Assembly (NCBI GenBank): GCA_033852175.1
Contig: JAWSUY010000001.1
Location: 463,408-527,407, forward strand
DNA length: 64,000 bases
Source: Agarilytica sp.
Lineage (GTDB): Bacteria > Pseudomonadota > Gammaproteobacteria > Pseudomonadales > Cellvibrionaceae
Direction: 5' to 3'
Below the pieces are notes generated by a model that had not been told where the DNA came from, made no database searches, and worked only from the letters and a program-made list of their open reading frames with translations. Positions 31,439 through 44,196 of the stretch are shown piece by piece. A program made the translations under genes and the position numbers. Every line of letters starts with the position of its first letter. Position 1 is the stretch's first letter.

Positions 31439-31996
31439 TTATTTCTTTCGAGAGGCTTTAGGGCGAGTTAGCACATAGGCCGCAAACACGCCCGCCAAAG
31501 CACCGAATAGATGCGATTCGAAAGAGACGTGAGGGTTTGACGGTAATACCCCCCAAATCATACCGCCATAAAATACGGCCACAAATACTGCGATCACGAT
31601 ATTGAGAAAACTACGCTGGAACCAAGCCACCGCTATCGAAAGGCTCCATAAACCAAAGATCCATCCACTGGCCCCGATATGTGTAGCCCCTGAGCGAGCG
31701 AATAACCATACCAAAATACCCGTTAAACAAATAATAATCGCACTGGCTTTGATAAAAAAGTTAGTGCCTCGAATGAGGCTCAAGGCACTAAACACAGCCA
31801 TCCCGACTAGGTTATTCATTAAATGCGACCAACTGCCGTGTAACCAAGGTGCCGTTATGATGTAGGGCAGGGTACTAATATCACCGGGACGAATACCGAA
31901 AACCGATAGTTGGTTGCTCAATACGACGTTTGCGATATGAATCACAATCATCGCTAAGCACGGGTAAACAATCAGTTTTACTTTTCTATCTAACAT
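31439..31996 (-). CDS. Rhomboid-family intramembrane serine protease
   Basis: 6-TM; catalytic GASGWIFG (GxSG) and downstream HLFGALAG histidine helix. Confidence 0.8.
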   Translation of the reverse strand: MLDRKVKLIVYPCLAMIVIHIANVVLSNQLSVFGIRPGDISTLPYIITAPWLHGSWSHLMNNLVGMAVFSALSLIRGTNFFIKASAIIICLTGILVWLFARSGATHIGASGWIFGLWSLSIAVAWFQRSFLNIVIAVFVAVFYGGMIWGVLPSNPHVSFESHLFGALAGVFAAYVLTRPKASRKK

Positions 31997-32006
31997 CTTT
32001 TACGTT

Positions 32007-35000
32007 TTAGGGATTGGGCTTTGGTTTAGGCTCTGATTTGGGTCTGGACTTGGTTTTGGCCTTTTCCAGATTTCCGGATTTTTGTTGCCTTTCCAAAGAG
32101 CGCAGCTGCTGTAAGACTTCTGTCATTTTTTCATGGGTACCTAAATCGATATCCAACTTTTTATCCATGCTGCGCACCAACGGGAAGATACTGCTTTCTA
32201 TGGTCGTCGCCAGTACACGTAGAAGCTTATCAATACCGGGCACCGGTTCGTTAACGACTTCAACGTTGGGCTCACTATCAATAATTGCCTGCTTAATTTC
32301 TCCTAGCGCCGAAAGAAAGACTTTTTCTTTTCCTTCATCACTTTGAAATTCTTTCTTAGCGATTTGCTTATTCAGACGATTCTGAAGCTTCGCTTCTCGC
32401 GAGATATGTGCGGTTGCATCTGCAATCGTTTGCACACTGCCGGCCAAATCCAATAATTGGCCAACCACTTTTTGACCTGTATCTGTCGAACCACCACCCA
32501 TAGCTTTATTGCGAATAAAATCTTCTTTTATTTTCGTCCAGCGTGCTTGCTCTACATCTGTCATGTTGCCGCGCAATTCAGCAAGCTTGAGTAGGTTTTC
32601 TTCTGCACCAGCTGTGAGTAGTTGTGCTTCACCAAGATAATGATCATGGATCAGCTGCATCATTTCTTCGTGGTTCATCACTGCCGAAATTTTCTCACCC
32701 ATTTTATTCATATTGCGATAGCTGCCTTGCAATTTGAATGAGGGTTCGGTTCGATATTCCTCTGCCTGAGCAGCCGATGCAATGTATTGTTTGTTGACTT
32801 TCAATACCACATCGCGAATCACGAACATCTTTTTCAGGATGTCGACAATTTCATTAACTTCAGCGCCGCTGTATTGGTGGCCGAAATCAGTGGTGGTAAC
32901 TTCTTTACCATTAGCCATATCGACAAATAGATAGACGTCTTTCATTTCCCGTGTTGCCAAGGGAGCCAGAACAGCGTTGGAGGTTAAACTGTTTTCTATA
33001 TAGCTAAGCTCGAACTGTTCATCCATTCCACCTAAAATATCGCCGAGGTTATAAATGTCCGCACGGTTTGCCAGCATGTCCGGAATTTTGAACATTTCGC
33101 CAGATTCGGTATAGGGGTTACCCGCCATTACCACACAGAATTTTTTGCCGCGCATATCATAGGTTTTGGTATCACCTCGCCATACACCTTCAATCCGGCG
33201 CGTACCATCACAAAGGGATATAAACTTCTGTAGAAATTCGGGGTGAGTGTGCTGGATATCATCGAGATACAACATGACGTTGTTACCCATTTCCAACGCG
33301 AGGTTTATTTTTTCAAGCTCTTGCTTCGATGTCGCATTTGAGGCCTGGGAAGGATCAAGCGAAAGAACATCGTGACCCAACGACGGGCAGTTGATCTTCA
33401 TAAAGATCAAACCCAAGCGGCTCGCGACATATTCCATCAATGTCGTTTTACCGTAGCCAGGAGGTGAAATCATCATCAACAAGCCCATCAAATCTGTACG
33501 CTTGGTATCACCAATCGTGCCCATTTGTTTAGCCAAGTTATCGCCAATAATGGGTAAGTAGGAATCGTTAATTAGCTTGTTGCGAACGAAAGAACTTAAC
33601 GGACGCGGCTTGAATTCCTCTAGCCTTAGAGATTTCCGTTCACGCGTCGACACTTCCTGCCGAATTTTGAGGTAGCTTTGGTAATTGGGAATGTGTGTAG
33701 CGACGTGATCATTTAAACGCATGATAAAATCGTCTAATGAGAATTGTAAGCATCGATTCTTGATGATCGCATGCTCTCCCATCAATCCTTCAACCGAGAT
33801 TTCCAATTCCGCTTCTGTCAGACGACGGTCAATGCGCTCATCTGCGTTGATCAGGCCAGCGGCTTCTGGGATATAGCGCGCTAATGATTCTAGCCCTTTT
33901 TCCGCGACCATTGCGCTCAACCATGCGCAGGATAGATTCCAACGTTCTGCTGGCCAACCCATCATTTTTTCTAATGCGGTTTGAAAACGACGCCAGCTTT
34001 CATCATCAAGAGAACGACGAAGCTCACTCGCCAATCGCTGAGCATATTTACTGCCGATAAATTCTGCTCGCTCTCGTCCAAGCTCTTGTACAAGGTAATC
34101 AGCTGCGCGAGCGATATCCAGCTCCGAAAGCTCCATTGGATGTATGGTGATAAATTCGTGCATTGCCGATCGAACTTCGATTGCCAATAATTTTTGTGCC
34201 TCATTACTCGAAAATACATTATGCATTTGCATCGCGGATTGAGCACGCTCAGTCCACGTTTCGAAAGTCAGACGTTTATTTTCGAGCTGTTCTGTAATTC
34301 GCTTTATATTGACCCAAAATACCTGAGCAAAGCCACGACAAAGCGGATCAAATCGAAGTAAGTCTGCCGACTGTAACGCAGGCATTAGTTTTTGGAGAAT
34401 TTTTACCGCATCGTAATCGTGAATGCCTTTCTCATAACCTTCTTTATAGCGAGGTCCAGCAAAGTCTTTTACGATTTTGCCGATTTCTTTATCGTCCAAA
34501 CACGCACTGTTCAGCACTTCGAGGTTTAAGCCATTCTGCTCTAACTCTGCTTGACGCAAAATACTATACGCAAGGTATTCAGCACGGTAAACAATGTCAC
34601 TTTCTGAGATAACACTAATATCCCAGTAGGGCTTTAATTCAAGTAATTCATCATCGATTATCGGCTCAAAGTAGTCAGTGCCGCTAAGGTGGAGATTCAG
34701 ATAACCCGCTCGTGGAATAATCGTAAGGTCGAGTTCTTGTCGGTTAACGCTAAATTTGTGACGTGGCCCAAGCCTAATCACCGCACCACCTTCTTCGTAT
34801 ATATCCGATTTATCACGAAGGATGCGAATGGCTTGCTCTTTTACACTTTTAAAACGCGCGTCAATATCATCTGCTTTAACCGAGGCGTTCAATTCGCCAA
34901 GGCTTGCAACAAATTCTCGAATCTTCATGACCAGAGGATCAGCGGCAAAGTAAGTGTTTAATTGATCGACTTCAGTGAACTTGGATGATCGCCTCTCAAT

Positions 35001-37355
35001 GCTCTTAATCGCTCGCTCGGCAGCATCTGTAATGGACTGTGCTTTGCGTTGTTGCTGATCGATTAATTGTTGTTTATGCGATTCAAATACTTCGTAAATC
35101 TCGTCACGTTTGCCAATGATATCTGTTAAAAACTGGTCAAAACCACTGAACTGAGATTCTAATTCTTCTAGCTGTGCCAGTAAGCGTGACATTTGCTCAT
35201 CGCAGCTGTCGGGTGTATTGGCAAGGCTCAAGGCATTGGTGATGCTCTGTGAAAATAATTTGAACTGGGCCGAAAACTCAGCAGTCGCTTCTTCGCTGCC
35301 AATGCCTTTTTGTTTATGCTTGGCATTCGCTTTGACTTGGTTCAGTTTTGAATAGACTTCTGATATCGAATCGACGATACGCGTACGCACCGTCGCATCA
35401 TTTACTTTTAGCGTCGATAACAATTCTGAAAGCAAGTCTAGACCTGAAGCTGTTGCTTCGATCACTTCAATCAAAGGCTTCAGCTCAGCTACTGTACTGG
35501 CTGCTTCTAAGTCTTGATTAATATTGGAAATTTTATCAAGGTAAGGCGATAGGGCGTCTTCATTCCCCAAAAACGTGACGGTTTTTTCACTAAGATCTTG
35601 CTGAAGAGAAAGAAGCTCTTCTTCCATTTTTTCAATACGCGATACATCGATGTAGCGAAATTCTTTTATCGTCGCAAGATGGCCACGGGCATGACGTATT
35701 TTATCCAACGATATTACGTAATCCTCTGCCGTTTCCCAGGATGCGGAGCGGACTTCTGTCTCCAAACTGTCCAGTTTTCCCTCAGCATCTTTCAATGCTT
35801 TTACTGATTGCTGCCGGATACTCTGAACTTTTTCAAATTCGTCAATAGCCAACTCTGCTGTATTAGAGATCTCCTTCAATACACCAGGAATATCACCAAG
35901 CTCACCTTCTGACACCCAATAGTGATCGTCGAATATTTTGAGTGACGCTTTACTGAGCTCTTCATAAAGTCTTACAGAGACCGATTGATTATCAATGGCT
36001 CGGCACACACTGTATAAGTCAGAAACACCTCGTACGAGTTGAGCATTACCGATACGGCCATAAAAGGTTTTGCTTTCTGGTTGGTTACTGGCGAACTCGT
36101 CACTTACGTAAGGCGTTACCCAGATTTGCATGGGGTGAACGCGGGTTGGCTCATCGTCTGCAGAAAACAAAACAAGCATGCCGTTTTCCGCTAAAGCATA
36201 ACCATGACCATATATAGGGTTTTGAATTTTTTTGTTAATGACGTTGTAACCGAGCAACGCTACCGTGCCTTTCACTTGCTCGTAGAAAATAAAGAATACA
36301 TCTTCACCATTGGGTGAACGAATCGATCTTTTAAATTTCAAACCTTCATGCTCGTCACCAAAGGTTTTGTACTCACCGGACTGCAAATAGTATCCACCGG
36401 GGAAAATAATCCCATGGTCCTCTGGTAGCTGTACGCAAGACGCACCGATGGCATCAATCCGTATGACACTTTCCGTTATGATATTAAACACAAAGAAACG
36501 CCATTGCTCTTCTTGATAAGGAAGAATTTTAATAAGAATGAGATCGCCAAGGCGTGCGTAGCTGTACTCACCATCGTCAAGCGATTGCGTTTTATTGTCT
36601 ACAGGTTCCCGATATATCCCTAGGCCATCTTGCGTATTATCTTCAATTTTTACGGTTAAATCACCGCCGAGACATTCAACAAACACGCTATCAAGAATAT
36701 TAAGATGTGCATGTTTACCATTAACGATATTTTCGCGTGTACATTCGATCCATTCGAAATCATATTCCGGCGGTAATTGTATGTCGCGCTCACCACGGTT
36801 ATCGATATACTCTAATGACCCATCGGGGGAAACAGCCCAGCGAAACACGCGAATATCTTCTATGCGCTCACCGATTTGAAAGCCCATCAAAAGCTTACCG
36901 TCTTTGATGGTTAGTTCTTGTAACTTAGTTTGCTTGTAGTAGTGATAGAGCTCTTGAAAATCCTTAACGAAACGAACGTCAGATAAAAATGTGGTCGTTT
37001 CGTCGACTTCTTGTAAGTCAAAATTATCGTCTTTCTCCGTCAGAGAAAAAATAGAGAAGACGTCTTCGACTTGGGTTTCTTTTTTTAGACCAATAAAAAC
37101 GTTGTAACCGAATAGAAGATAATTACCCACTTGAACAATATCACGTGCTACACAATTATTTTCTGTTCTAATACGCACGCGCGCAGCCACGTTCATATCG
37201 GCGCTGCCGAATTCCTCTAACCGCGATTGATTCAATTTTGCAACTTGGGTATTGAGTTCTCGTCCTCTTTCCAGAAGCCGTTTTTTTATAACTTCATAAG
37301 CCCCTCCTTCGGCTACTGCAGCATCCACTATATTTTCAGCAACGGCTTCTGACAT
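32007..37355 (-). CDS. Giant (1782 aa) multidomain protein with MoxR/AAA_5-like AAA+ ATPase core (residues about 1280-1480) and extensive coiled coils
   Basis: Walker A ISPPGYGKTTLM (DNA about 33437-33460), Walker B VMLYLDDIQH (about 33249-33280), then MAGNPYTESGEMFKIPDMLANRADIYNL, which parallels the MoxR ATQNP...LPEAQLDRF sensor/arginine region. About 1250 aa of N-terminal sequence has no recognised domain. Lys/Pro-rich C-terminal tail; 10 bp from rhomboid and 17 bp from the Gly-zipper gene. Confidence 0.7.
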   Translation of the reverse strand: MSEAVAENIVDAAVAEGGAYEVIKKRLLERGRELNTQVAKLNQSRLEEFGSADMNVAARVRIRTENNCVARDIVQVGNYLLFGYNVFIGLKKETQVEDVFSIFSLTEKDDNFDLQEVDETTTFLSDVRFVKDFQELYHYYKQTKLQELTIKDGKLLMGFQIGERIEDIRVFRWAVSPDGSLEYIDNRGERDIQLPPEYDFEWIECTRENIVNGKHAHLNILDSVFVECLGGDLTVKIEDNTQDGLGIYREPVDNKTQSLDDGEYSYARLGDLILIKILPYQEEQWRFFVFNIITESVIRIDAIGASCVQLPEDHGIIFPGGYYLQSGEYKTFGDEHEGLKFKRSIRSPNGEDVFFIFYEQVKGTVALLGYNVINKKIQNPIYGHGYALAENGMLVLFSADDEPTRVHPMQIWVTPYVSDEFASNQPESKTFYGRIGNAQLVRGVSDLYSVCRAIDNQSVSVRLYEELSKASLKIFDDHYWVSEGELGDIPGVLKEISNTAELAIDEFEKVQSIRQQSVKALKDAEGKLDSLETEVRSASWETAEDYVISLDKIRHARGHLATIKEFRYIDVSRIEKMEEELLSLQQDLSEKTVTFLGNEDALSPYLDKISNINQDLEAASTVAELKPLIEVIEATASGLDLLSELLSTLKVNDATVRTRIVDSISEVYSKLNQVKANAKHKQKGIGSEEATAEFSAQFKLFSQSITNALSLANTPDSCDEQMSRLLAQLEELESQFSGFDQFLTDIIGKRDEIYEVFESHKQQLIDQQQRKAQSITDAAERAIKSIERRSSKFTEVDQLNTYFAADPLVMKIREFVASLGELNASVKADDIDARFKSVKEQAIRILRDKSDIYEEGGAVIRLGPRHKFSVNRQELDLTIIPRAGYLNLHLSGTDYFEPIIDDELLELKPYWDISVISESDIVYRAEYLAYSILRQAELEQNGLNLEVLNSACLDDKEIGKIVKDFAGPRYKEGYEKGIHDYDAVKILQKLMPALQSADLLRFDPLCRGFAQVFWVNIKRITEQLENKRLTFETWTERAQSAMQMHNVFSSNEAQKLLAIEVRSAMHEFITIHPMELSELDIARAADYLVQELGRERAEFIGSKYAQRLASELRRSLDDESWRRFQTALEKMMGWPAERWNLSCAWLSAMVAEKGLESLARYIPEAAGLINADERIDRRLTEAELEISVEGLMGEHAIIKNRCLQFSLDDFIMRLNDHVATHIPNYQSYLKIRQEVSTRERKSLRLEEFKPRPLSSFVRNKLINDSYLPIIGDNLAKQMGTIGDTKRTDLMGLLMMISPPGYGKTTLMEYVASRLGLIFMKINCPSLGHDVLSLDPSQASNATSKQELEKINLALEMGNNVMLYLDDIQHTHPEFLQKFISLCDGTRRIEGVWRGDTKTYDMRGKKFCVVMAGNPYTESGEMFKIPDMLANRADIYNLGDILGGMDEQFELSYIENSLTSNAVLAPLATREMKDVYLFVDMANGKEVTTTDFGHQYSGAEVNEIVDILKKMFVIRDVVLKVNKQYIASAAQAEEYRTEPSFKLQGSYRNMNKMGEKISAVMNHEEMMQLIHDHYLGEAQLLTAGAEENLLKLAELRGNMTDVEQARWTKIKEDFIRNKAMGGGSTDTGQKVVGQLLDLAGSVQTIADATAHISREAKLQNRLNKQIAKKEFQSDEGKEKVFLSALGEIKQAIIDSEPNVEVVNEPVPGIDKLLRVLATTIESSIFPLVRSMDKKLDIDLGTHEKMTEVLQQLRSLERQQKSGNLEKAKTKSRPKSEPKPKPNP

Positions 37356-37372
37356 CGATCTATTCCTTAAAT

Positions 37373-37621
37373 TTATTCTGAGTCGGCAGAGTGAATCTGC
37401 ACCTCTTTTTCGGATCCTTTACTGGAGTCAGCAGGGCTAACTTCAGTGTATTGCTCAAGCGCCCAAGCGATGGTGGCGCCGAGACCGGCCCCGACCATCG
37501 TGTTTTTTACCATGTCGCCTTTGGTAGCGCCTAACAGCGCTCCAATGGCAGCGCCGATACCGGCACCTTTTTTGATATCGTCTTGGGAGATGCTTTCGAG
37601 CAGGTCAGTGATTTCTTTCAT
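37373..37621 (-). CDS. Small glycine-zipper protein
   Basis: GAGIGAAIGALLGATKG...VGAGLGATIAWA GxxxG-type zipper repeats; 82 aa. Confidence 0.5.
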   Translation of the reverse strand: MKEITDLLESISQDDIKKGAGIGAAIGALLGATKGDMVKNTMVGAGLGATIAWALEQYTEVSPADSSKGSEKEVQIHSADSE

Positions 37622-37651
37622 TAGAATTCCTCTGTCTGGTTTTATGCTCGA

Positions 37652-39625
37652 TTAGCTGACGTCTTTTTCTTTGCTAGAGGATTCCATCACTTTGCCTAAT
37701 ATCGCTTGTATGGTTCCGCTTTTCTCAGCTAAGCCGTCAATTGCTTTACCAATGGATAAGGATTTAGCAAAGTTGTTAAAGAAGTGATCTTCACCACCGA
37801 CAATATCAATTTTCGCTTTTTCCAGAGCTGTTGCGAGTACTTCTGCATTTTCTTTCGCAATTTCTTTACCTGCATCAAGAGTCGCAAGCGCTTCTTTAAG
37901 TGCAGTCTCTAATCCCATACGGAATTCTTCATGCTCACGTGCATCAGTACTCATGCTGTTCATCGCCTGGAACTTATCAACAAGGCCGTCGGCTTCCGCT
38001 TTAAACTTCTGACGAATAACTTCAGCTTCAGCAAAACCGGTTTCATTGGTCGCCTTCGCTTCAGATGTACCTTTAAGCGCAACAACATCTGCTTCTGCGG
38101 TACCTACGTTAGCAACAACACTTGCTTCCGATTCACCTTTAGCTGCAACAACGCGCGCTTCAGACTCACCTTTAGCAGCAACAACATGTGCTTCGGCTAG
38201 ACCTTCTTTTTCAAGCGCATCCGCTTTGGCTTCTTGTACTTTCGCATCCGCAAGGCCTGGGGCAGCTCGTTCTGCTTGTGTACCTTCTGCCAGTTTTTTC
38301 TTCGCATCGGCTTCTTTTGCAGAAGCTTCTAAGTTAGCTTGCGCTAGAACCGTGATTTCACCCGCTTTATGCTTCGCTGATAGCTCTTCAGATTCTGCGC
38401 GCTTAACTTCTTTGACTTTAGCTTCTTCTGCTTTTGCTTCGGCTTCTAATACTTGCACTTGCTTCAGTCGATCCGCTTCAGAAACTTCTCGAACTTCTTT
38501 GATTTTCTCTTCTTCGATTGCGACAGATTTGTCCACAACAATTCGTTCACGAATAACGTTAGCAATTTCTTTACGTTCGACTTCAACAGCTTTTTCAGCT
38601 TCGATACGTTGCAGCTCAACTTCACGTTCACGTGATACGATTTCGAGATCTCTTGCCCGTGTTACTTTTTCAATTTCAATAACAACAGCGCGCTGACGAT
38701 TTTGCTCAGCAACTTCAATTTCACGTTTTTGATTTTCGGTTTGAACTGCAAGTTCTTGATCAGAAGCAATCGTTGCGCTTTCAGACTTGAGACGCTCCTC
38801 TTCTTGCACTCGAATAGTTTCAGCATCTTCTCTAGCTTGAACAGTTGCAACTTCGCGCCCCTGCCTTGCTTCTGCATCCGCTTGTTGACGCTCTAGCTCC
38901 AACATAGACTCAATAGTTTCGACATTTTTCTTTTTGATAGCGAGTTCTTCATCACGCTCAAAGACATTAGTTTTTACATTTTGCGCTGCGGTTAGTTCGG
39001 TAATTTTCCGAATACCTTCAGCATCGAGAATATTATTGGGATCAAGCTGGCTTTTCGGCGTCTGCTCTAGGTAATCAATCGCAACATCTTCAAGGATATA
39101 GCCATTGAGATCATCACCAATGACTTCAATAATTTTGTCTCGGAATTTTTGTCGATCTTCAAACAAATTCACAAATTCAATTTGTTTTCCAACCGTTTTC
39201 AATGCTTCTGAAAATTTTGCGTTAAATAGGTCGTTAACCGCCTGTTTGTCTGACGCTCTTCTAGCACCTAATGACTTCGCCACTTTCAACACATCATCAG
39301 CCGTTTCGTTAACCCGTAGGTAAAACGCTACCGTGATATCAGCACGCATATTATCCAGGCAGATTAGGCCGTCTTGACCGCGTCTATCCACTTCCATGGT
39401 GATAAGCGATATACGCATAAGTTCTTTTTTATGAATAACGGGGTAAACAAAAGTCCCGGTGAAAAACACCTTCGGCTTGGACCCCATGTCATTTTTGATT
39501 AGTGCAACTCCTTGCTCTACCTTGACGTAAAAGAATTTGAACCACATGGGAATGGCCAAAACCATCAGCAAAATAACTCCACTGAAAACGAATAGACCAC
39601 CCATTTGTTCGATAAACTGAGACAT
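37652..39625 (-). CDS. yqiK: Flotillin-family SPFH/band-7 protein (YqiK-like)
   Basis: N-terminal TM, SPFH domain, and long Glu/Ala/Lys/Arg-rich coiled coil with 11-aa tandem repeats; architecture collinear with E. coli YqiK. Confidence 0.8.
   Translation of the reverse strand: MSQFIEQMGGLFVFSGVILLMVLAIPMWFKFFYVKVEQGVALIKNDMGSKPKVFFTGTFVYPVIHKKELMRISLITMEVDRRGQDGLICLDNMRADITVAFYLRVNETADDVLKVAKSLGARRASDKQAVNDLFNAKFSEALKTVGKQIEFVNLFEDRQKFRDKIIEVIGDDLNGYILEDVAIDYLEQTPKSQLDPNNILDAEGIRKITELTAAQNVKTNVFERDEELAIKKKNVETIESMLELERQQADAEARQGREVATVQAREDAETIRVQEEERLKSESATIASDQELAVQTENQKREIEVAEQNRQRAVVIEIEKVTRARDLEIVSREREVELQRIEAEKAVEVERKEIANVIRERIVVDKSVAIEEEKIKEVREVSEADRLKQVQVLEAEAKAEEAKVKEVKRAESEELSAKHKAGEITVLAQANLEASAKEADAKKKLAEGTQAERAAPGLADAKVQEAKADALEKEGLAEAHVVAAKGESEARVVAAKGESEASVVANVGTAEADVVALKGTSEAKATNETGFAEAEVIRQKFKAEADGLVDKFQAMNSMSTDAREHEEFRMGLETALKEALATLDAGKEIAKENAEVLATALEKAKIDIVGGEDHFFNNFAKSLSIGKAIDGLAEKSGTIQAILGKVMESSSKEKDVS
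38040..38210. repeat. About 33-bp tandem repeats inside the flotillin gene (encode AKGESEA(R/S)VVA repeats)
   Basis: Repeated ...CACCTTTAGCAGCAACAAC(A/G)... units visible on the plus strand. Confidence 0.6.
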
Positions 39626-39647
39626 TACTTACTCCTTAAAATTAGAC

Positions 39648-40301
39648 TTAATCACAAAAATCGGACTCTGAAACTACCTTATAAATATTTTTACTTTCTA
39701 CATATTCGAGAAGGACAATACGATCACCCCTCTCAAAAACTTCGTCCTTATAGGACCTAACCTTTACCAGCAATCCAGCTCCGCCATCTTCGACCCTAGC
39801 CTCACCAAATTTTTTATCAACACGGCCCGTTCGAACAATTCCCACTTGGCCAACTATTGTTTTTTCTATATGTTGATCCGCCAACTTAAAAAGTTTGCGT
39901 AAAGGCTTAATCACTTGAGCAGTCACAATAATGGCCGCATAAAGGGCCGCTATAAATACAGCAATCCCCACAAATGGTTCAAAAAAGTCGGGCACAAAAG
40001 GAAATCCAAAATAAACAATGTAATAACTGAATAACCAACCCGTTGTTGATATGAGTGAAACAATGATCGGCAAAGGAACGCCATTGAGGCCCAGCTTCAT
40101 AGCTAAACCGGCAACGCCATTAACCCCCACATCGCCATCAGAAATGTCAGTATCGAGCACATCAATATCGATCACGCCCAAAAATGATATTAGCCAGTAG
40201 AAAACGCTGACAATAAGGAAAACACTAAATATAACGGTCGGAAAAGATGTGACTATGGAATAGAAACCGTCCATTTTGTCAGTGAGTAATATTGTAAACA
40301 C
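39648..40301 (-). CDS. yqiJ: NfeD-like membrane protein (YqiJ-like) partner of flotillin
   Basis: N-terminal multi-TM region and C-terminal OB-fold-like soluble domain (QVGIVRTGRVDKKFGEARVEDGGAGLLVKV); sits immediately upstream of flotillin, as in yqiJK. Confidence 0.65.
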   Translation of the reverse strand: MFTILLTDKMDGFYSIVTSFPTVIFSVFLIVSVFYWLISFLGVIDIDVLDTDISDGDVGVNGVAGLAMKLGLNGVPLPIIVSLISTTGWLFSYYIVYFGFPFVPDFFEPFVGIAVFIAALYAAIIVTAQVIKPLRKLFKLADQHIEKTIVGQVGIVRTGRVDKKFGEARVEDGGAGLLVKVRSYKDEVFERGDRIVLLEYVESKNIYKVVSESDFCD

Positions 40302-40653
40302 CTTAGTCCTCCTTTTTCTTTTGATACGATTATTTTGAGGCTAGCTTTCTAGCTAGAGCTAAACGCTCCTCGAAGTAATCCGCGATTTATTGTGGGATCT
40401 AATCCCAATCTGTAGCTTCGAAACATGCCTATGAATGGCCGCTAGCAAAATTTCCTTTTTTATTCTGTCTATCCCTTCTCGCTTTTTCTATCTTATGCCT
40501 TCCTTACCCTGCATTTTGTTCACTCCCTCGCTCCCTATCCGCCCTCTCCAGCCTTAAGCCTCAAGGGACACTTCACGCCTGACCATGCAGAACCATCTGG
40601 AGAAAAAGAGCAACAGCATAGCCTACGACACCCACGAAGCATACCCTCTAATT

Positions 40654-40977
40654 TCAGTTACGCTTCGCTATTTTTACTGCTGTACCATAGGCAAGCAGCT
40701 CTGCCGCCCCCCTCATCATTGAGGCGGTGGTAAACTTCACGCCAACGATGGCATCTGCCCCCATTATCGTGGCATCGACTATCATTCGATCAACCGCCTG
40801 CTCGCGTGACTCCGCTATCATTTTTGTGTATTCGGTAATCTCTCCACCGATAATCATCCGCAGGCCCGCAATAATATCTTTACCAACATGCCTCGCACGG
40901 ATGGTATTACCCTTAACTAAGCCAAGGGTTTCCGAAATGTCCAAATCGGCAAAATTGTCCTGCGTAGTTATCAGCAT
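40654..40977 (-). CDS. ybjQ: YbjQ/UPF0145 (DUF74) family protein
   Basis: 107 aa, collinear with E. coli YbjQ (GNTIRARHVGKDIIAGLRMIIGGEI..Y......R..A..RM...A..MGADAIVGVKF......G..E..AYGTAVK). Confidence 0.8.
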   Translation of the reverse strand: MLITTQDNFADLDISETLGLVKGNTIRARHVGKDIIAGLRMIIGGEITEYTKMIAESREQAVDRMIVDATIMGADAIVGVKFTTASMMRGAAELLAYGTAVKIAKRN

Positions 40978-41189
40978 TATTTTTCCACCTTTTTTGAATA
41001 GTAATCATCTTCCTTGTTCGCCAATCGCTCTTTGACAACCTTGGTCATAAACACGCCAATACTCAGCAAGAGCAGCAAACCAACAAAACCGTAGGGTAGC
41101 AGTGCCAACAAACCCAAAAACATCGCCACCAGATAAGAACCCACAACCATGATCAAAAGTGCATATCCAACTTTTTCATATTTATCCAT
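40977..41189 (-). CDS. Small 2-TM membrane protein
   Basis: 70 aa, two hydrophobic helices, Lys/Glu-rich tail; stop overlaps the ybjQ start. Confidence 0.45.
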   Translation of the reverse strand: MDKYEKVGYALLIMVVGSYLVAMFLGLLALLPYGFVGLLLLLSIGVFMTKVVKERLANKEDDYYSKKVEK

Positions 41190-41412: not shown

Positions 41413-42096
41413 TTACTTATTCTTCAAACGTTCAAGCACTTTTTCAGCACTCGATCCGTTAGGCGCTATCCCAGCGGCTTTTAGTTTTTCATCCAATGAA
41501 TCTTCAGTTCCGTCCTGGGAAATTTCACTTGCCGCATTAATTTTTGCTTGCTTTAGATCCTGCTTTTCTTTGATCCGATCTAACGAGTCCATCGCTGTGC
41601 GCAATTTGGAATTGGTGCCGCTGTGGCGCTCAGCTACGGCCGACTGTGCCCGCAGCACATTCTCTGTCGCTTTGACCGTATCCACTTGCTGCTTCAATCG
41701 CCGAATATTTTGTTCCGCATTTTTTATTGCCGTGCGCAGGTCATTTGCATTTGATGCAAAACTTTTTCCTGCTTCACTTTCTGTTGCAAATTGATTTTCA
41801 AGATCAGCAACCTTTTGCGCCACCTCCATTGCCAACGTGTCATCTCCTTTTTTAAGCGCCTGACCCGCATAGCCCTCATACTCATCAATATTCGCCTTCA
41901 GCTGGTCGGCCTTTTCTTCAGCCAACTTTTGCCGCGCAATAATCGACGCAAGCCCATCTTTAGACTGCCTTAACTCTTCAGTTGCATCTCGGACCTCTTG
42001 ATCCAAAATTCGTAATGCCTGCGAATCTATCGCGGCTTCTCCGGCTTCGTTCAATCCGCCGCGTAATGCTGTTACCAGTTTTGACCACATGTTCAT
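41413..42096 (-). CDS. yjfJ: PspA/IM30-family (ESCRT-III superfamily) protein, YjfJ-like
   Basis: Helical coiled-coil protein collinear with E. coli YjfJ/PspA, including C-terminal LDEKLKAAGI...SAEKVLERLK. Start ATG 42096 has an AGGA RBS; the track ORF is 5'-extended. Confidence 0.8.
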   Translation of the reverse strand: MNMWSKLVTALRGGLNEAGEAAIDSQALRILDQEVRDATEELRQSKDGLASIIARQKLAEEKADQLKANIDEYEGYAGQALKKGDDTLAMEVAQKVADLENQFATESEAGKSFASNANDLRTAIKNAEQNIRRLKQQVDTVKATENVLRAQSAVAERHSGTNSKLRTAMDSLDRIKEKQDLKQAKINAASEISQDGTEDSLDEKLKAAGIAPNGSSAEKVLERLKNK

Positions 42097-42106
42097 TTCC
42101 TTTTTC

Positions 42107-42739
42107 TCATTTCGTCGCTTGTTTTTGCAGGAGCAAATATTCGCTATAGGCTTCTGCGGCTTGAATAACATTTGAAGCCAAGACTTCAATTTCAAAAATT
42201 ACGTTCGATAGAATCGAGGTTGCGCTCAACGCACCGAACATTTGGTAATAGGCTTTGCCGTCTCCCAGCACGTCTAAGCTGATTGTCGATAACGGAAAGA
42301 ATTTATGGGTTCGCAATACGGCATCATTAAAGCCCTGCGTATCTGCCACCTCATCTTCAGACCAAAGCACGGCTTCCACCAATATCTGCTCACCCGATAC
42401 GGTTAAGAACAGGGGAAGATCACCTTGATCATGCATCACAAAATGCACCGCTGGGGCCACACCATCGATCAATTCAATGGTTGCCTTATCCCCGTCAAAG
42501 AGGGGATCTACCGCTAACGCATCGAACAAACTTTGTGTCGTCCACTTTTTCATTTCTGTCATTTCCAGTACTCCATTTTCCAATAAGGTTTCATCAAATT
42601 CTGCACGCAGAAGCTTTTCAAATTTCGCTAACCACTTTGCATTCTCTGGCAGAATCCACGCTTCTTTCTTTACGAGGCCCAACTCTCTGAGCCGCCGCCG
42701 GTATTCACGCTGATAATGTGCTGATGTCTTCTCTTTCAT
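42107..42739 (-). CDS. Hypothetical protein co-operonic with the PspA-family gene (position analogous to E. coli yjfI)
   Basis: 210-aa ORF ending 10 nt before the PspA start; no motif recognised by eye. Confidence 0.4.
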   Translation of the reverse strand: MKEKTSAHYQREYRRRLRELGLVKKEAWILPENAKWLAKFEKLLRAEFDETLLENGVLEMTEMKKWTTQSLFDALAVDPLFDGDKATIELIDGVAPAVHFVMHDQGDLPLFLTVSGEQILVEAVLWSEDEVADTQGFNDAVLRTHKFFPLSTISLDVLGDGKAYYQMFGALSATSILSNVIFEIEVLASNVIQAAEAYSEYLLLQKQATK

Positions 42740-42757
42740 GTGACCTACCTTATAGCC

Positions 42758-42815
42758 TTACATGTAATGCGTCAATAATAATTACATGTAACGCGCAAAC
42801 ATTATTACATGTAAC
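42758..42815. promoter_or_regulatory. Three copies of the perfect 10-bp palindrome TTACATGTAA (42758-42767, 42783-42792, 42806-42815); putative operator/UAS of the psp-like cluster (and/or divergent hemH)
   Basis: Read directly in the sequence; spacing 25 and 23 bp; located 19-76 bp upstream of the minus-strand start at 42739. Confidence 0.5.
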
Positions 42816-43071: not shown

Positions 43072-44196
43072 GTGGCTTATAAAGATTCTTCATATTTCAC
43101 CCACACACAGCAAGATAAAGTCGGCCTGTTGATCACCAACCTCGGCACTCCCGATGCGCCGACGACAAAGGCTGTGCGACGGTACCTGAAAGAATTTTTG
43201 TCTGACCCTCGCGTGGTGGAGATTCCCCGCTTGATCTGGTGGTTCATGCTCAACGTTGTCATTTTGAACATCAGACCCAGCCGCTCTGCCAAGGCCTACC
43301 AAAAGGTCTGGAAGGAGGAGGGTTCTCCACTCGCTGTGCATACCGAAAAGCAGGCCCGCTTATTACATGACAAGCTAAAGCAAAGTTGGGGCGACGACAT
43401 TTTAGTGGAGCATGGGATGCGCTACGGATCTCCATCTATAGAGAGTGCTCTGCAAAAACTGATAGAGCAGGGAGCACGCAAGTTATTGGTCATGCCCATG
43501 TACCCTCAGTATTCCGGCTCGACCACCGCTTCAACATTCGATGCCATCGCTAAGGATTTTGGTTCGCGTCGATTGCTGCCCGAATTCAGGTTTATCAATA
43601 ACTATCACGATTTTGGCCCTTACATTGAAGCGCTTGCGACTTCGGTTCGACAATATTGGGAAGACAATGGCCGCGCGCAGATGCTGTTGTTTTCGTATCA
43701 CGGCCTACCTATGAATTTTCTGCATAACGGCGACCCTTATCATTGCCATTGCCATAAGACCTCTCGGTTACTGGCTGCGGCGCTAGACCTCAAAGATGAC
43801 GAGTGGACTACTGCATTTCAATCTCGTATGGGTCGCGAACCTTGGTTGCAGCCGTATGCTAATGAGACGTTGAAGTCCTTCCCCGGAAAAGGCATTAAGT
43901 CAGTGCAGGTTGTGTGCCCTGGATTTCCGGCAGACTGTCTCGAAACCATTGAAGAAATTGGAATGGAAAACCGTGAATATTTTATGGAAGCAGGCGGGGA
44001 GAAGTATCAATACATTCCCTCACTGAACGATCAAGACATCCACATTGATGCATTGGCTCAACTGGCCGAGAAACATTTGGGCGGATGGCGAGAAGACTTT
44101 GCGCCTAGCTCCAGCTCTACAACAGCCTCAGGCTGCCCAGCATCACGATCTGAATTATTTAAAGCTCACGGCTATAACCAGAAGAGTGAAACTTAA
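43072..44196 (+). CDS. hemH: Ferrochelatase
   Basis: Collinear with E. coli HemH (LGTPDAPT, RYLKEFLSD.RVV, MRYGSPS, PMYPQYS, GFPADCLETIEEI); about 50-aa C-terminal extension. Confidence 0.85.
   Translation: MAYKDSSYFTHTQQDKVGLLITNLGTPDAPTTKAVRRYLKEFLSDPRVVEIPRLIWWFMLNVVILNIRPSRSAKAYQKVWKEEGSPLAVHTEKQARLLHDKLKQSWGDDILVEHGMRYGSPSIESALQKLIEQGARKLLVMPMYPQYSGSTTASTFDAIAKDFGSRRLLPEFRFINNYHDFGPYIEALATSVRQYWEDNGRAQMLLFSYHGLPMNFLHNGDPYHCHCHKTSRLLAAALDLKDDEWTTAFQSRMGREPWLQPYANETLKSFPGKGIKSVQVVCPGFPADCLETIEEIGMENREYFMEAGGEKYQYIPSLNDQDIHIDALAQLAEKHLGGWREDFAPSSSSTTASGCPASRSELFKAHGYNQKSET

Follow-up and report, generated by a model that had tools for sequence, protein, structure and literature searches.

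Type II antitoxins classically act as autorepressors on palindromes in their own promoters, and MetJ at its met-boxes, Arc, Mnt, and CopG are small dimeric modules that each read a short palindrome, present in 2 to 5 tandem copies over a promoter. PasA of pTF-FC2 has been reviewed as an example of an autorepressor antitoxin (PMC4803016); we do not claim it as a member of PF11455, the antitoxin family considered below. Negative control has also been reported for the Pseudomonas aeruginosa bac operon, which has been linked to rhamnolipid secretion, swarming, biofilm formation, and virulence: according to Wallart et al. (2024, PMC10948618), BacB-F were up 6- to 13-fold in a bacA mutant. The published work presents BacA (PA3732/PA14_16140) as a 16-kDa protein of 146-147 amino acids (aa), which starts at Met60 and consists of DUF2170 with a fold like that of type III secretion system (T3SS) chaperones. 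The P. aeruginosa papers proposed control by protein-protein contacts and by a sigma-54 promoter, and they mention no operator and no DNA-binding domain. Here, we analyzed a bacA locus in a 64-kb stretch of DNA from Agarilytica sp. (the window), in which three palindromic boxes lie 5′ of the gene. We consider it likely that these boxes form the autoregulatory operator of a sigma-70 promoter that gives a leaderless bacA mRNA, and that a MazE-like domain in BacA, overlooked so far, recognizes them.

The window locus and the P. aeruginosa bac operon have in common an orthologous first gene, an operon type that combines DUF2170, PspA-like, NfeD-like, flotillin-like, and DUF3686 ATPase genes, boxes in the same registers, and negative control, which is a prediction for the window; they differ in that the window operon contains an extra YbjQ gene and a gene for a 70-aa membrane protein. 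The resemblance to Escherichia coli PspF/PspA lies in a PspA-family effector that is placed under stress-responsive, self-limiting control, with PspA-family feedback on the regulator being possible. Unlike that system, the bacA promoter is predicted to be of the sigma-70 type, leaderless, and putatively repressed, with no activation by an enhancer-binding protein.

The palindrome TTACATGTAA is present in the window in three exact copies, at 42758-42767 (box 1), 42782-42791 (box 2), and 42805-42814 (box 3), none of them assigned to a strand. The original prediction had reported three identical 10-bp palindromes with hemH as the divergent gene, and both points were borne out (hemH is at 43072-44196); only the end coordinate, 42815, was one base too far. 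These are the sole exact copies in the 64 kb, for which the chance expectation is 0.05 per window, and three copies were reached in none of 100 dinucleotide-preserving shuffles. Allowing up to two mismatches added 19 copies elsewhere in the window, giving a total of 22 versus 36 expected, which is not above chance. The start-to-start spacing of the boxes is 24 and 23 bp, and the nearest and farthest box edges lie 19 nucleotides (nt) and 75 nt, respectively, from the A of the bacA ATG at 42739. No RNA family was found in this region by an Rfam scan, and a literature search with TTACATGTAA returned unrelated eukaryotic, viral, and primer contexts only.

To place these boxes in a comparative frame, we used 80 loci encoding BacA homologues (55-95% protein identity) from Cellvibrionaceae, Oceanospirillales, Hahella, Methylococcales, and others, which together with the window make 81. 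Exact boxes numbered 137 in the 150 bp 5′ of bacA versus 0 in the other ~912 kb, and the corresponding numbers for boxes with at most one mismatch were 190 and 15. At least one box was found in every locus, two to four in 78 of the 81, and three or more in 30. Relative to the ATG, box starts fall at −28/−27, between −47 and −52, and, for the distal boxes, mostly between −68 and −76. Of the 81 loci, 74 could be aligned by a proximal box, and 60 of these have a box at the first of the positions named. The symmetric pair TCACATGTAA / TTACATGTGA accounts for 50 of the 53 inexact boxes, and boxes are present as well in the high-GC Marilutibacter and in a strongly diverged BacA homologue. On this comparative evidence, the boxes are genuine, deeply conserved predicted operator sites over the bacA promoter. 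A motif search had been suggested earlier as a way of defining a regulon. Our scan for further targets covered this window and ~0.9 Mb of related loci; the copies do mark a promoter, that of bacA, and since they mark only this promoter in the examined sequence, there is no sign of a wider regulon.

The 74 loci anchored on the proximal box yield the consensus TTGAc..tATTACATGTAATaa.tTA..gT, with the ATG following 6-7 nt on, and the promoter predicted from this alignment is of the sigma-70 type, with a geometry that recurs in P. aeruginosa and in Marilutibacter. Its elements in the window lie on the minus strand: the predicted −35 hexamer, TTGACG (42770-42775), corresponds to the conserved TTGAC 8 nt 5′ of box 1, and the predicted −10 hexamer, TAAGGT (42747-42752), separated from it by a 17-nt spacer, corresponds to the conserved TA...T located 15 nt after the start of box 1. 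Box 1, which starts 28 nt 5′ of the ATG in gene orientation, fills the 17-nt spacer, box 2 directly abuts the −35 hexamer on its 5′ side, and the distal box 3 stands one step further upstream. The predicted sites thereby overlap the core promoter elements of bacA. A simple sigma-70 consensus scan of the window intergenic region retrieved nothing, because the −10 element is weak and the promoter becomes visible only in the 74-locus alignment. The ATG of long-form BacA (42737-42739, minus strand) is 7 nt past the −10 hexamer in the window and 6-7 nt past it in most loci, and thus a leaderless mRNA is implied; the predicted transcription start coincides with this codon (leaderless or with a 1-nt leader). 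In agreement with the absence of a Shine-Dalgarno (SD) sequence before Met1 across the family, the mean anti-SD pairing energy there is −2.36 kcal/mol versus a background of −2.69 kcal/mol.

Three arrangements depart from this layout. The Hahella loci (L015, L038, and L050) have no spacer box, yet they carry two boxes 5′ of the −35; in another locus (L006), two boxes are 15 bp apart; and at the diverged homologue (L086), boxes 13-14 bp apart are found at or after the putative −10.

The gene behind this promoter, bacA (42107-42739, minus strand), encodes 210 aa arranged as an N-terminal domain, a variable linker, and DUF2170. The latter was identified by PF09938 (1.7e-48; 164.3 bits versus a cut-off of 27, residues 65-202), and the only solved relative, P. 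aeruginosa BacA (PDB 8q8o), aligns to residues 61-203 at an E value of 1e-36, the solved chain beginning at the equivalent of residue 61. Within BacA, both conservation and basicity are highest in the first ~47 residues (MKxKSSAHYQREYRRRLRExGLVKKEVWILPENAKxLAxxEKxLR). Their coding region, residues 1-47 at 42599-42739 on the minus strand, was assigned to a putative DNA-binding module of the MazE-like/DUF3018 type from sequence conservation and an hhalign alignment to PF11455.

This kinship emerged from member-by-member scans in combination with hhalign. When the N-terminal domains of 20 relatives were scanned, 13 matched PF11455 (DUF3018, "antitoxin MazE-like"), all below threshold and with a best E value of 4.7e-4, and 17 matched the NCBIfam model UrfF, "plasmid repression protein F," again all below threshold; nothing relevant was found in the literature on UrfF. 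When hhalign was used to align bona fide PF11455 antitoxins to the N-terminal domain of BacA, the probability was 95.6% and the E value 1.1e-8 over 37 columns comprising the helix-strand core. For the window N terminus itself, the Pfam scan produced a spurious Ser_hydrolase match only, and the NCBIfam scan produced weak matches to UrfF and RepC. By these profile comparisons, the BacA N terminus is homologous to the PF11455 MazE-like antitoxins. The gene 3′ of bacA is PspA-like, not PemK/MazF, and BacA is therefore regarded as a relative of the PF11455 domain and not as an antitoxin of a toxin-antitoxin pair. AlphaFold2 (AF2) modeled the domain alone as a monomer with a helix at residues 6-19, an extended segment at 20-30, and a second helix at 31-49 (pLDDT 83); in the full-length model the N terminus was poorly predicted, with block-mean pLDDT values of 45-67. 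BacA is a dimer, and the extended segment of the model is compatible with strand pairing in a dimer.

The box recurs at loci of bona fide PF11455 antitoxins. From 306 PLSDB plasmids, we took a sample of 16 MazE-like loci. In 12 of them, TT(A/G/T)CATGTAA lies 20-60 bp 5′ of the start of the antitoxin gene; another has a degenerate box, and three are without a box (two orphan antitoxin genes and one pseudogene). The box-positive loci come from Alpha- and Gammaproteobacteria and from Mycobacterium, and in two of the plasmids, pRAS3.2 and one from Xylella, the −35 is provided by the distal box, with the proximal box placed after the −10. When metagenomes were searched for the box pair, at least 80 loci were retrieved. 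Of the 80 matches listed, 13 encode the N-terminal domain, and its coding region starts 13-120 bp 3′ of the boxes in all 13; nine of these 13 are bacA, and the four listed contigs with a GC content of at least 0.60 all have the box pair 13-19 bp before a PF11455 antitoxin domain, followed by a PemK/MazF toxin gene. Like the bona fide PF11455 loci, the window bacA has TTNCATGTAA boxes in its own promoter, namely, three of them.

The similarity to the PF11455 antitoxins (of pRAS3.2 and of Xanthomonas, Xylella, and Rhizobium plasmids) thus extends to the homologous N-terminal helix-strand segment R..LR..GL....IW, to a TT(A/G/T)CATGTAA box, single or double, that lies over the promoter of the domain-encoding gene, and to a presumed autorepressor as the product of the operon's first gene. 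The systems differ in the C terminus, which in the antitoxins neutralizes a MazF/PemK toxin, whereas BacA has DUF2170 and controls a membrane-stress operon, and in the bases flanking the box, where the antitoxin loci have G/C and bacA has mostly A/T. From these sequence comparisons, the box is apparently an undescribed operator consensus for PF11455 (DUF3018) antitoxins; a literature search returned no description of an operator for this family, and we know of none described to date.

Two observations on individual antitoxin loci were made in passing. The PF11455 antitoxin/PemK operons (L207-L216, L219-L224, L087, L088, L122, and L154) have gTTACATGTAAc or the variants TTGCATGTAA / TTTCATGTAA over their promoters. 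On a Xanthomonas hortorum plasmid (L211, 598-816), the annotated antitoxin start at 646 is apparently 48 nt too far downstream; the in-frame ATG at 598 restores the conserved MAHVNSRVQKHRDALR N terminus and puts the boxes at the usual distance.

Which protein would read the boxes at bacA? Considering the linkage in cis, the homology to PF11455, and the association of domain and box in metagenomes and plasmids, the putative binder is most likely BacA itself, acting through its N-terminal domain. We propose that long-form BacA would repress its own operon (bacA, bacB, and the genes for the NfeD-like protein, the flotillin-like protein, the DUF3686 ATPase, and further proteins) through the boxes. 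Dimerization via DUF2170 would pair two N-terminal helix-strand-helix modules, one such pair would read one 10-bp palindrome, and two or three BacA dimers on boxes about two helical turns apart would occlude RNA polymerase. More speculatively, DUF2170 may be the part through which repression is tuned, with the PspA-like BacB or a short isoform consisting of DUF2170 only as the tuning partner, in a manner that could be likened to the action of a toxin on an antitoxin repressor or of PspA on PspF. A contact between BacA and BacB has been predicted (PMC13092808) and, together with the internal SD sequence described below, makes such a relief of repression plausible, if speculative.

The arrangement is reminiscent of ribbon-helix-helix (RHH) repressors, since what is established for MetJ and Arc would, by analogy, fit tandem short palindromes over a promoter. 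It differs from them in the predicted order of the BacA domain, helix-strand-helix in the model instead of strand-helix-helix, in boxes that are 21-24 bp apart and do not abut, and in the lack of a sequence or fold match to solved RHH proteins.

An alternative is that the boxes are bound by an unlinked factor, such as a stand-alone PF11455 antitoxin or a global regulator, and that BacA acts through protein contacts only. Stand-alone PF11455 loci do carry the same box, which makes cross-talk conceivable, and the published model invokes chaperone-like partner switching. Nevertheless, the boxes stand in cis with a gene for the N-terminal domain in every examined locus across orders and vanish where the domain is absent, no box being found at E. 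coli yjfI or at Pseudomonas sp. DG56-2 bacA, two homologues without it; besides, no other regulator gene is conserved near bacA in the 80 related loci. We therefore regard an unlinked binder as improbable. A separate look at the bac-type operon of Pseudomonas sp. DG56-2 (L084, 3700-5250) showed that its first gene, without the N-terminal domain, has a normal SD sequence and no boxes, that the pspA-like gene is split into two open reading frames (ORFs; 133 and 142 aa), and that a 64-aa ORF lies divergently upstream; regulation of the operon may have changed in this lineage.

The second alternative takes the boxes as upstream activating sequences (UAS) for an enhancer-binding protein at a sigma-54 promoter, as in PspF/psp and as proposed for bac. 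The operon indeed encodes a PspA homologue, and a putative RpoN site 5′ of the annotated PA3732 start is reported in two papers. We found that P. aeruginosa has the same promoter layout as the window, ttaTTACATGTGAgctgTTGAAAtcTTACATGTGAtctcgTAGTGTgagtccATG, with two TTACATGTGA boxes in the same promoter registers, and that its −10 equivalent, TAGTGT, lies 6 nt before a mapped transcription start site (TSS). The latter was determined by differential RNA sequencing (dRNA-seq) of PA14, which placed the TSS of PA14_16140-16150 at 1374599, 177 nt 5′ of the annotated start at 1374776 (Wurtzel et al., PMC3460626). Since Met1 and Met60 are separated by 59 codons, that is, by 177 nt, this TSS is the A of the long-form ATG. 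The mapped start thus confirms the sigma-70 promoter and the leaderless transcript in P. aeruginosa, in which long-form BacA has 206 aa (L083, 6990-7180).

The sigma-54 reading is at odds with several further results. No site resembling TGGCAC-N5-TTGC was found on the coding strand, whether in the intergenic region of the window (at most two mismatches) or around the P. aeruginosa promoter (at most three mismatches), and, owing to this lack of a credible site in either, the UAS/sigma-54 reading was rejected. The conserved TTGAC-17-TAnnnT promoter brackets box 1 and is in register with the mapped PA14 TSS; loss of bacA raises expression and does not lower it; and the "upstream" region of those papers is largely coding sequence of the missed N-terminal domain. 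The domain was missed in the published work because the form of BacA used began at Met60, and the comparison of reading frames indicates that the annotated and crystallized BacA is an N-terminally truncated form. Accordingly small is the chance we give to a sigma-54 UAS, and the sigma-54 promoter proposed for P. aeruginosa is probably wrong. The original prediction had left a choice between an operator and a UAS for a dimeric regulator: comparative evidence upholds the operator 5′ of the psp/flotillin cluster, and the UAS falls with box 1 lying inside the −35/−10 spacer and no sigma-54 promoter being present.

Several observations weigh against autorepression by BacA through its N-terminal domain. 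The window protein scored 293.9 bits over positions 1-202 of 206 of NF050185, "biofilm formation regulator BacA," and did not reach the cut-off of 300; because this value is just below a cut-off tuned on Pseudomonas, we treat the protein as an orthologue outside the range of the curated equivalog. Its N terminus gave no match to PF11455 (gathering score 22 bits) even at E values of up to 10. The AF2 monomer shows helix-extended-helix only and had no Foldseek match in the PDB, and profile searches of PDB sequences with BacA-N or PF11455 likewise gave no match; as no solved structure resembles the N-terminal domain, its mode of DNA recognition is inferred. The effect of the published bacA mutation (PMC10948618) may be a polar one. 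In the window, the −10 region, TAAGGTAGG, resembles an SD sequence (−9.3 kcal/mol), an SD-like AAGGTAGG being present, so that leaderlessness of the window mRNA rests on homology.

The metagenome scan adds to this side of the balance. Among the 80 matches listed, 67 are without a gene for the N-terminal domain, which is why the bare box pair is not diagnostic and the 13 domain-encoding loci alone are informative; 55 of these 67 are REP-like hairpins (TTACATGTAAAG-N8-CTTTACATGTAA) or tandem arrays in AT-rich contigs. In the matches listed, the REP-like hairpins (L094-L165, GC content 0.23-0.47) are intergenic, often just past stop codons, and occur in several copies per contig, with no BacA or MazE-like gene nearby; the tandem arrays of the box pair were seen in metagenome contigs L117, L130, L146, L149, and L164. 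That the palindromes at bacA are likewise structural or epigenetic DNA elements, either REP-like hairpins, as the same word pair forms them and tandem arrays in many AT-rich metagenome contigs, or methylation sites, as the box contains CATG and ACATGT, both common methyltransferase and restriction targets, is highly unlikely, given that the spacers in the window are not complementary, that registers to the −35, the −10, and the ATG are fixed over large phylogenetic distances and GC contents, and that the boxes are not transcribed, the mRNA starting at the ATG, and have no counterpart in Rfam.

Returning to autoregulation by BacA, we noticed that the gene contains a second conserved start signal. 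An SD core, GGAG (the Gly56 codon GGA plus G; 42571-42574, minus strand), conserved in the family, stands 8 nt before an in-frame ATG at 42560-42562 (minus strand), which encodes the nearly invariant Met60 and is the candidate start of a short isoform composed of DUF2170 only. The annotation of PA3732/PA14_16140 begins at Met60, and so does the PDB chain; the conserved internal SD in front of this codon is the reason why annotation and gene callers choose it. Of 59 dereplicated loci, 55 have GGAG 5′ of the internal Met, versus a background of 7.9%, usually with an 8-nt gap and within a linker that is otherwise variable. Gly56 is invariant, and its codon is GGA in 93% of cases, versus 12% at the other glycines of bacA. 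Before Met60, the anti-SD pairing energy averages −7.96 kcal/mol, compared with −2.69 kcal/mol at control positions and −2.36 kcal/mol before Met1. In P. aeruginosa the internal SD sequence is GAGAAGGAGGAAGACATG. This pattern of conservation suggests that a DUF2170-only, DNA-binding-deficient short isoform is made.

A more elaborate reading, which we put forward only tentatively and consider rather unlikely in its entirety, is that bacA is a self-contained two-isoform switch, with a leaderless long repressor, an SD-led short DUF2170-only form, and tuning by BacB. The long form, combining an antitoxin-type domain with the chaperone-like DUF2170 domain, would sit on the TTACATGTAA boxes, and the short form would heterodimerize with it or compete with it for BacB, the PspA-like protein. 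The level to which the PspA/flotillin membrane-repair operon is derepressed would then be set by how often initiation is leaderless as opposed to SD-led and by recruitment of BacB to the membrane. Such a switch would amount to a domesticated toxin-antitoxin autoregulation module in which BacB takes the place of the toxin.

bacA is the first gene of an operon with genes for PspA-like, NfeD-like, and flotillin-like proteins and a DUF3686 ATPase, all on the minus strand in the window. It is followed by bacB (41413-42096; probable start MNMWSK), a member of the PspA/IM30 family (PF04012, 3.8e-46) that lies 3′ of bacA in 80 of the 80 related loci. The remainder of the operon (31439-41189) encodes the 70-aa membrane protein, YbjQ, the NfeD-like protein (39648-40301), the flotillin-like protein (37652-39625), a DUF3686/DUF7902/AAA protein of 1782 aa (32007-37355), and a rhomboid protein (31439-31996). 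The genes for the 70-aa membrane protein and YbjQ (PF01906) are inserted between the pspA-like and NfeD-like genes, at 40654-41189, and have equivalents in only 1-2 of the 80 related loci. bacB and the NfeD-like and flotillin-like genes are kept in 78-80 of these 80 loci, and the hemH neighborhood is kept in three. Thus, the boxes travel with the bac operon and not with flanking genes. The divergent hemH is incidental, given its retention in only those three loci, and its coregulation was rejected on the same ground.

Taken together, these results offer a concrete mechanism, open to experiment, by which BacA could exert the negative control that has been reported, without explanation, for the P. 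aeruginosa bac operon. They also provide what is apparently the first operator consensus for the PF11455 antitoxins, a widespread family on plasmids from pathogens of plants, fish, and humans. If our reading of the locus is true, a toxin-antitoxin DNA-binding module would have been recruited to a PspA/flotillin membrane-stress system. If one gene yields both a long form by leaderless initiation and a short form that is SD-led, the mode of translation initiation could furthermore be linked to stress signaling.
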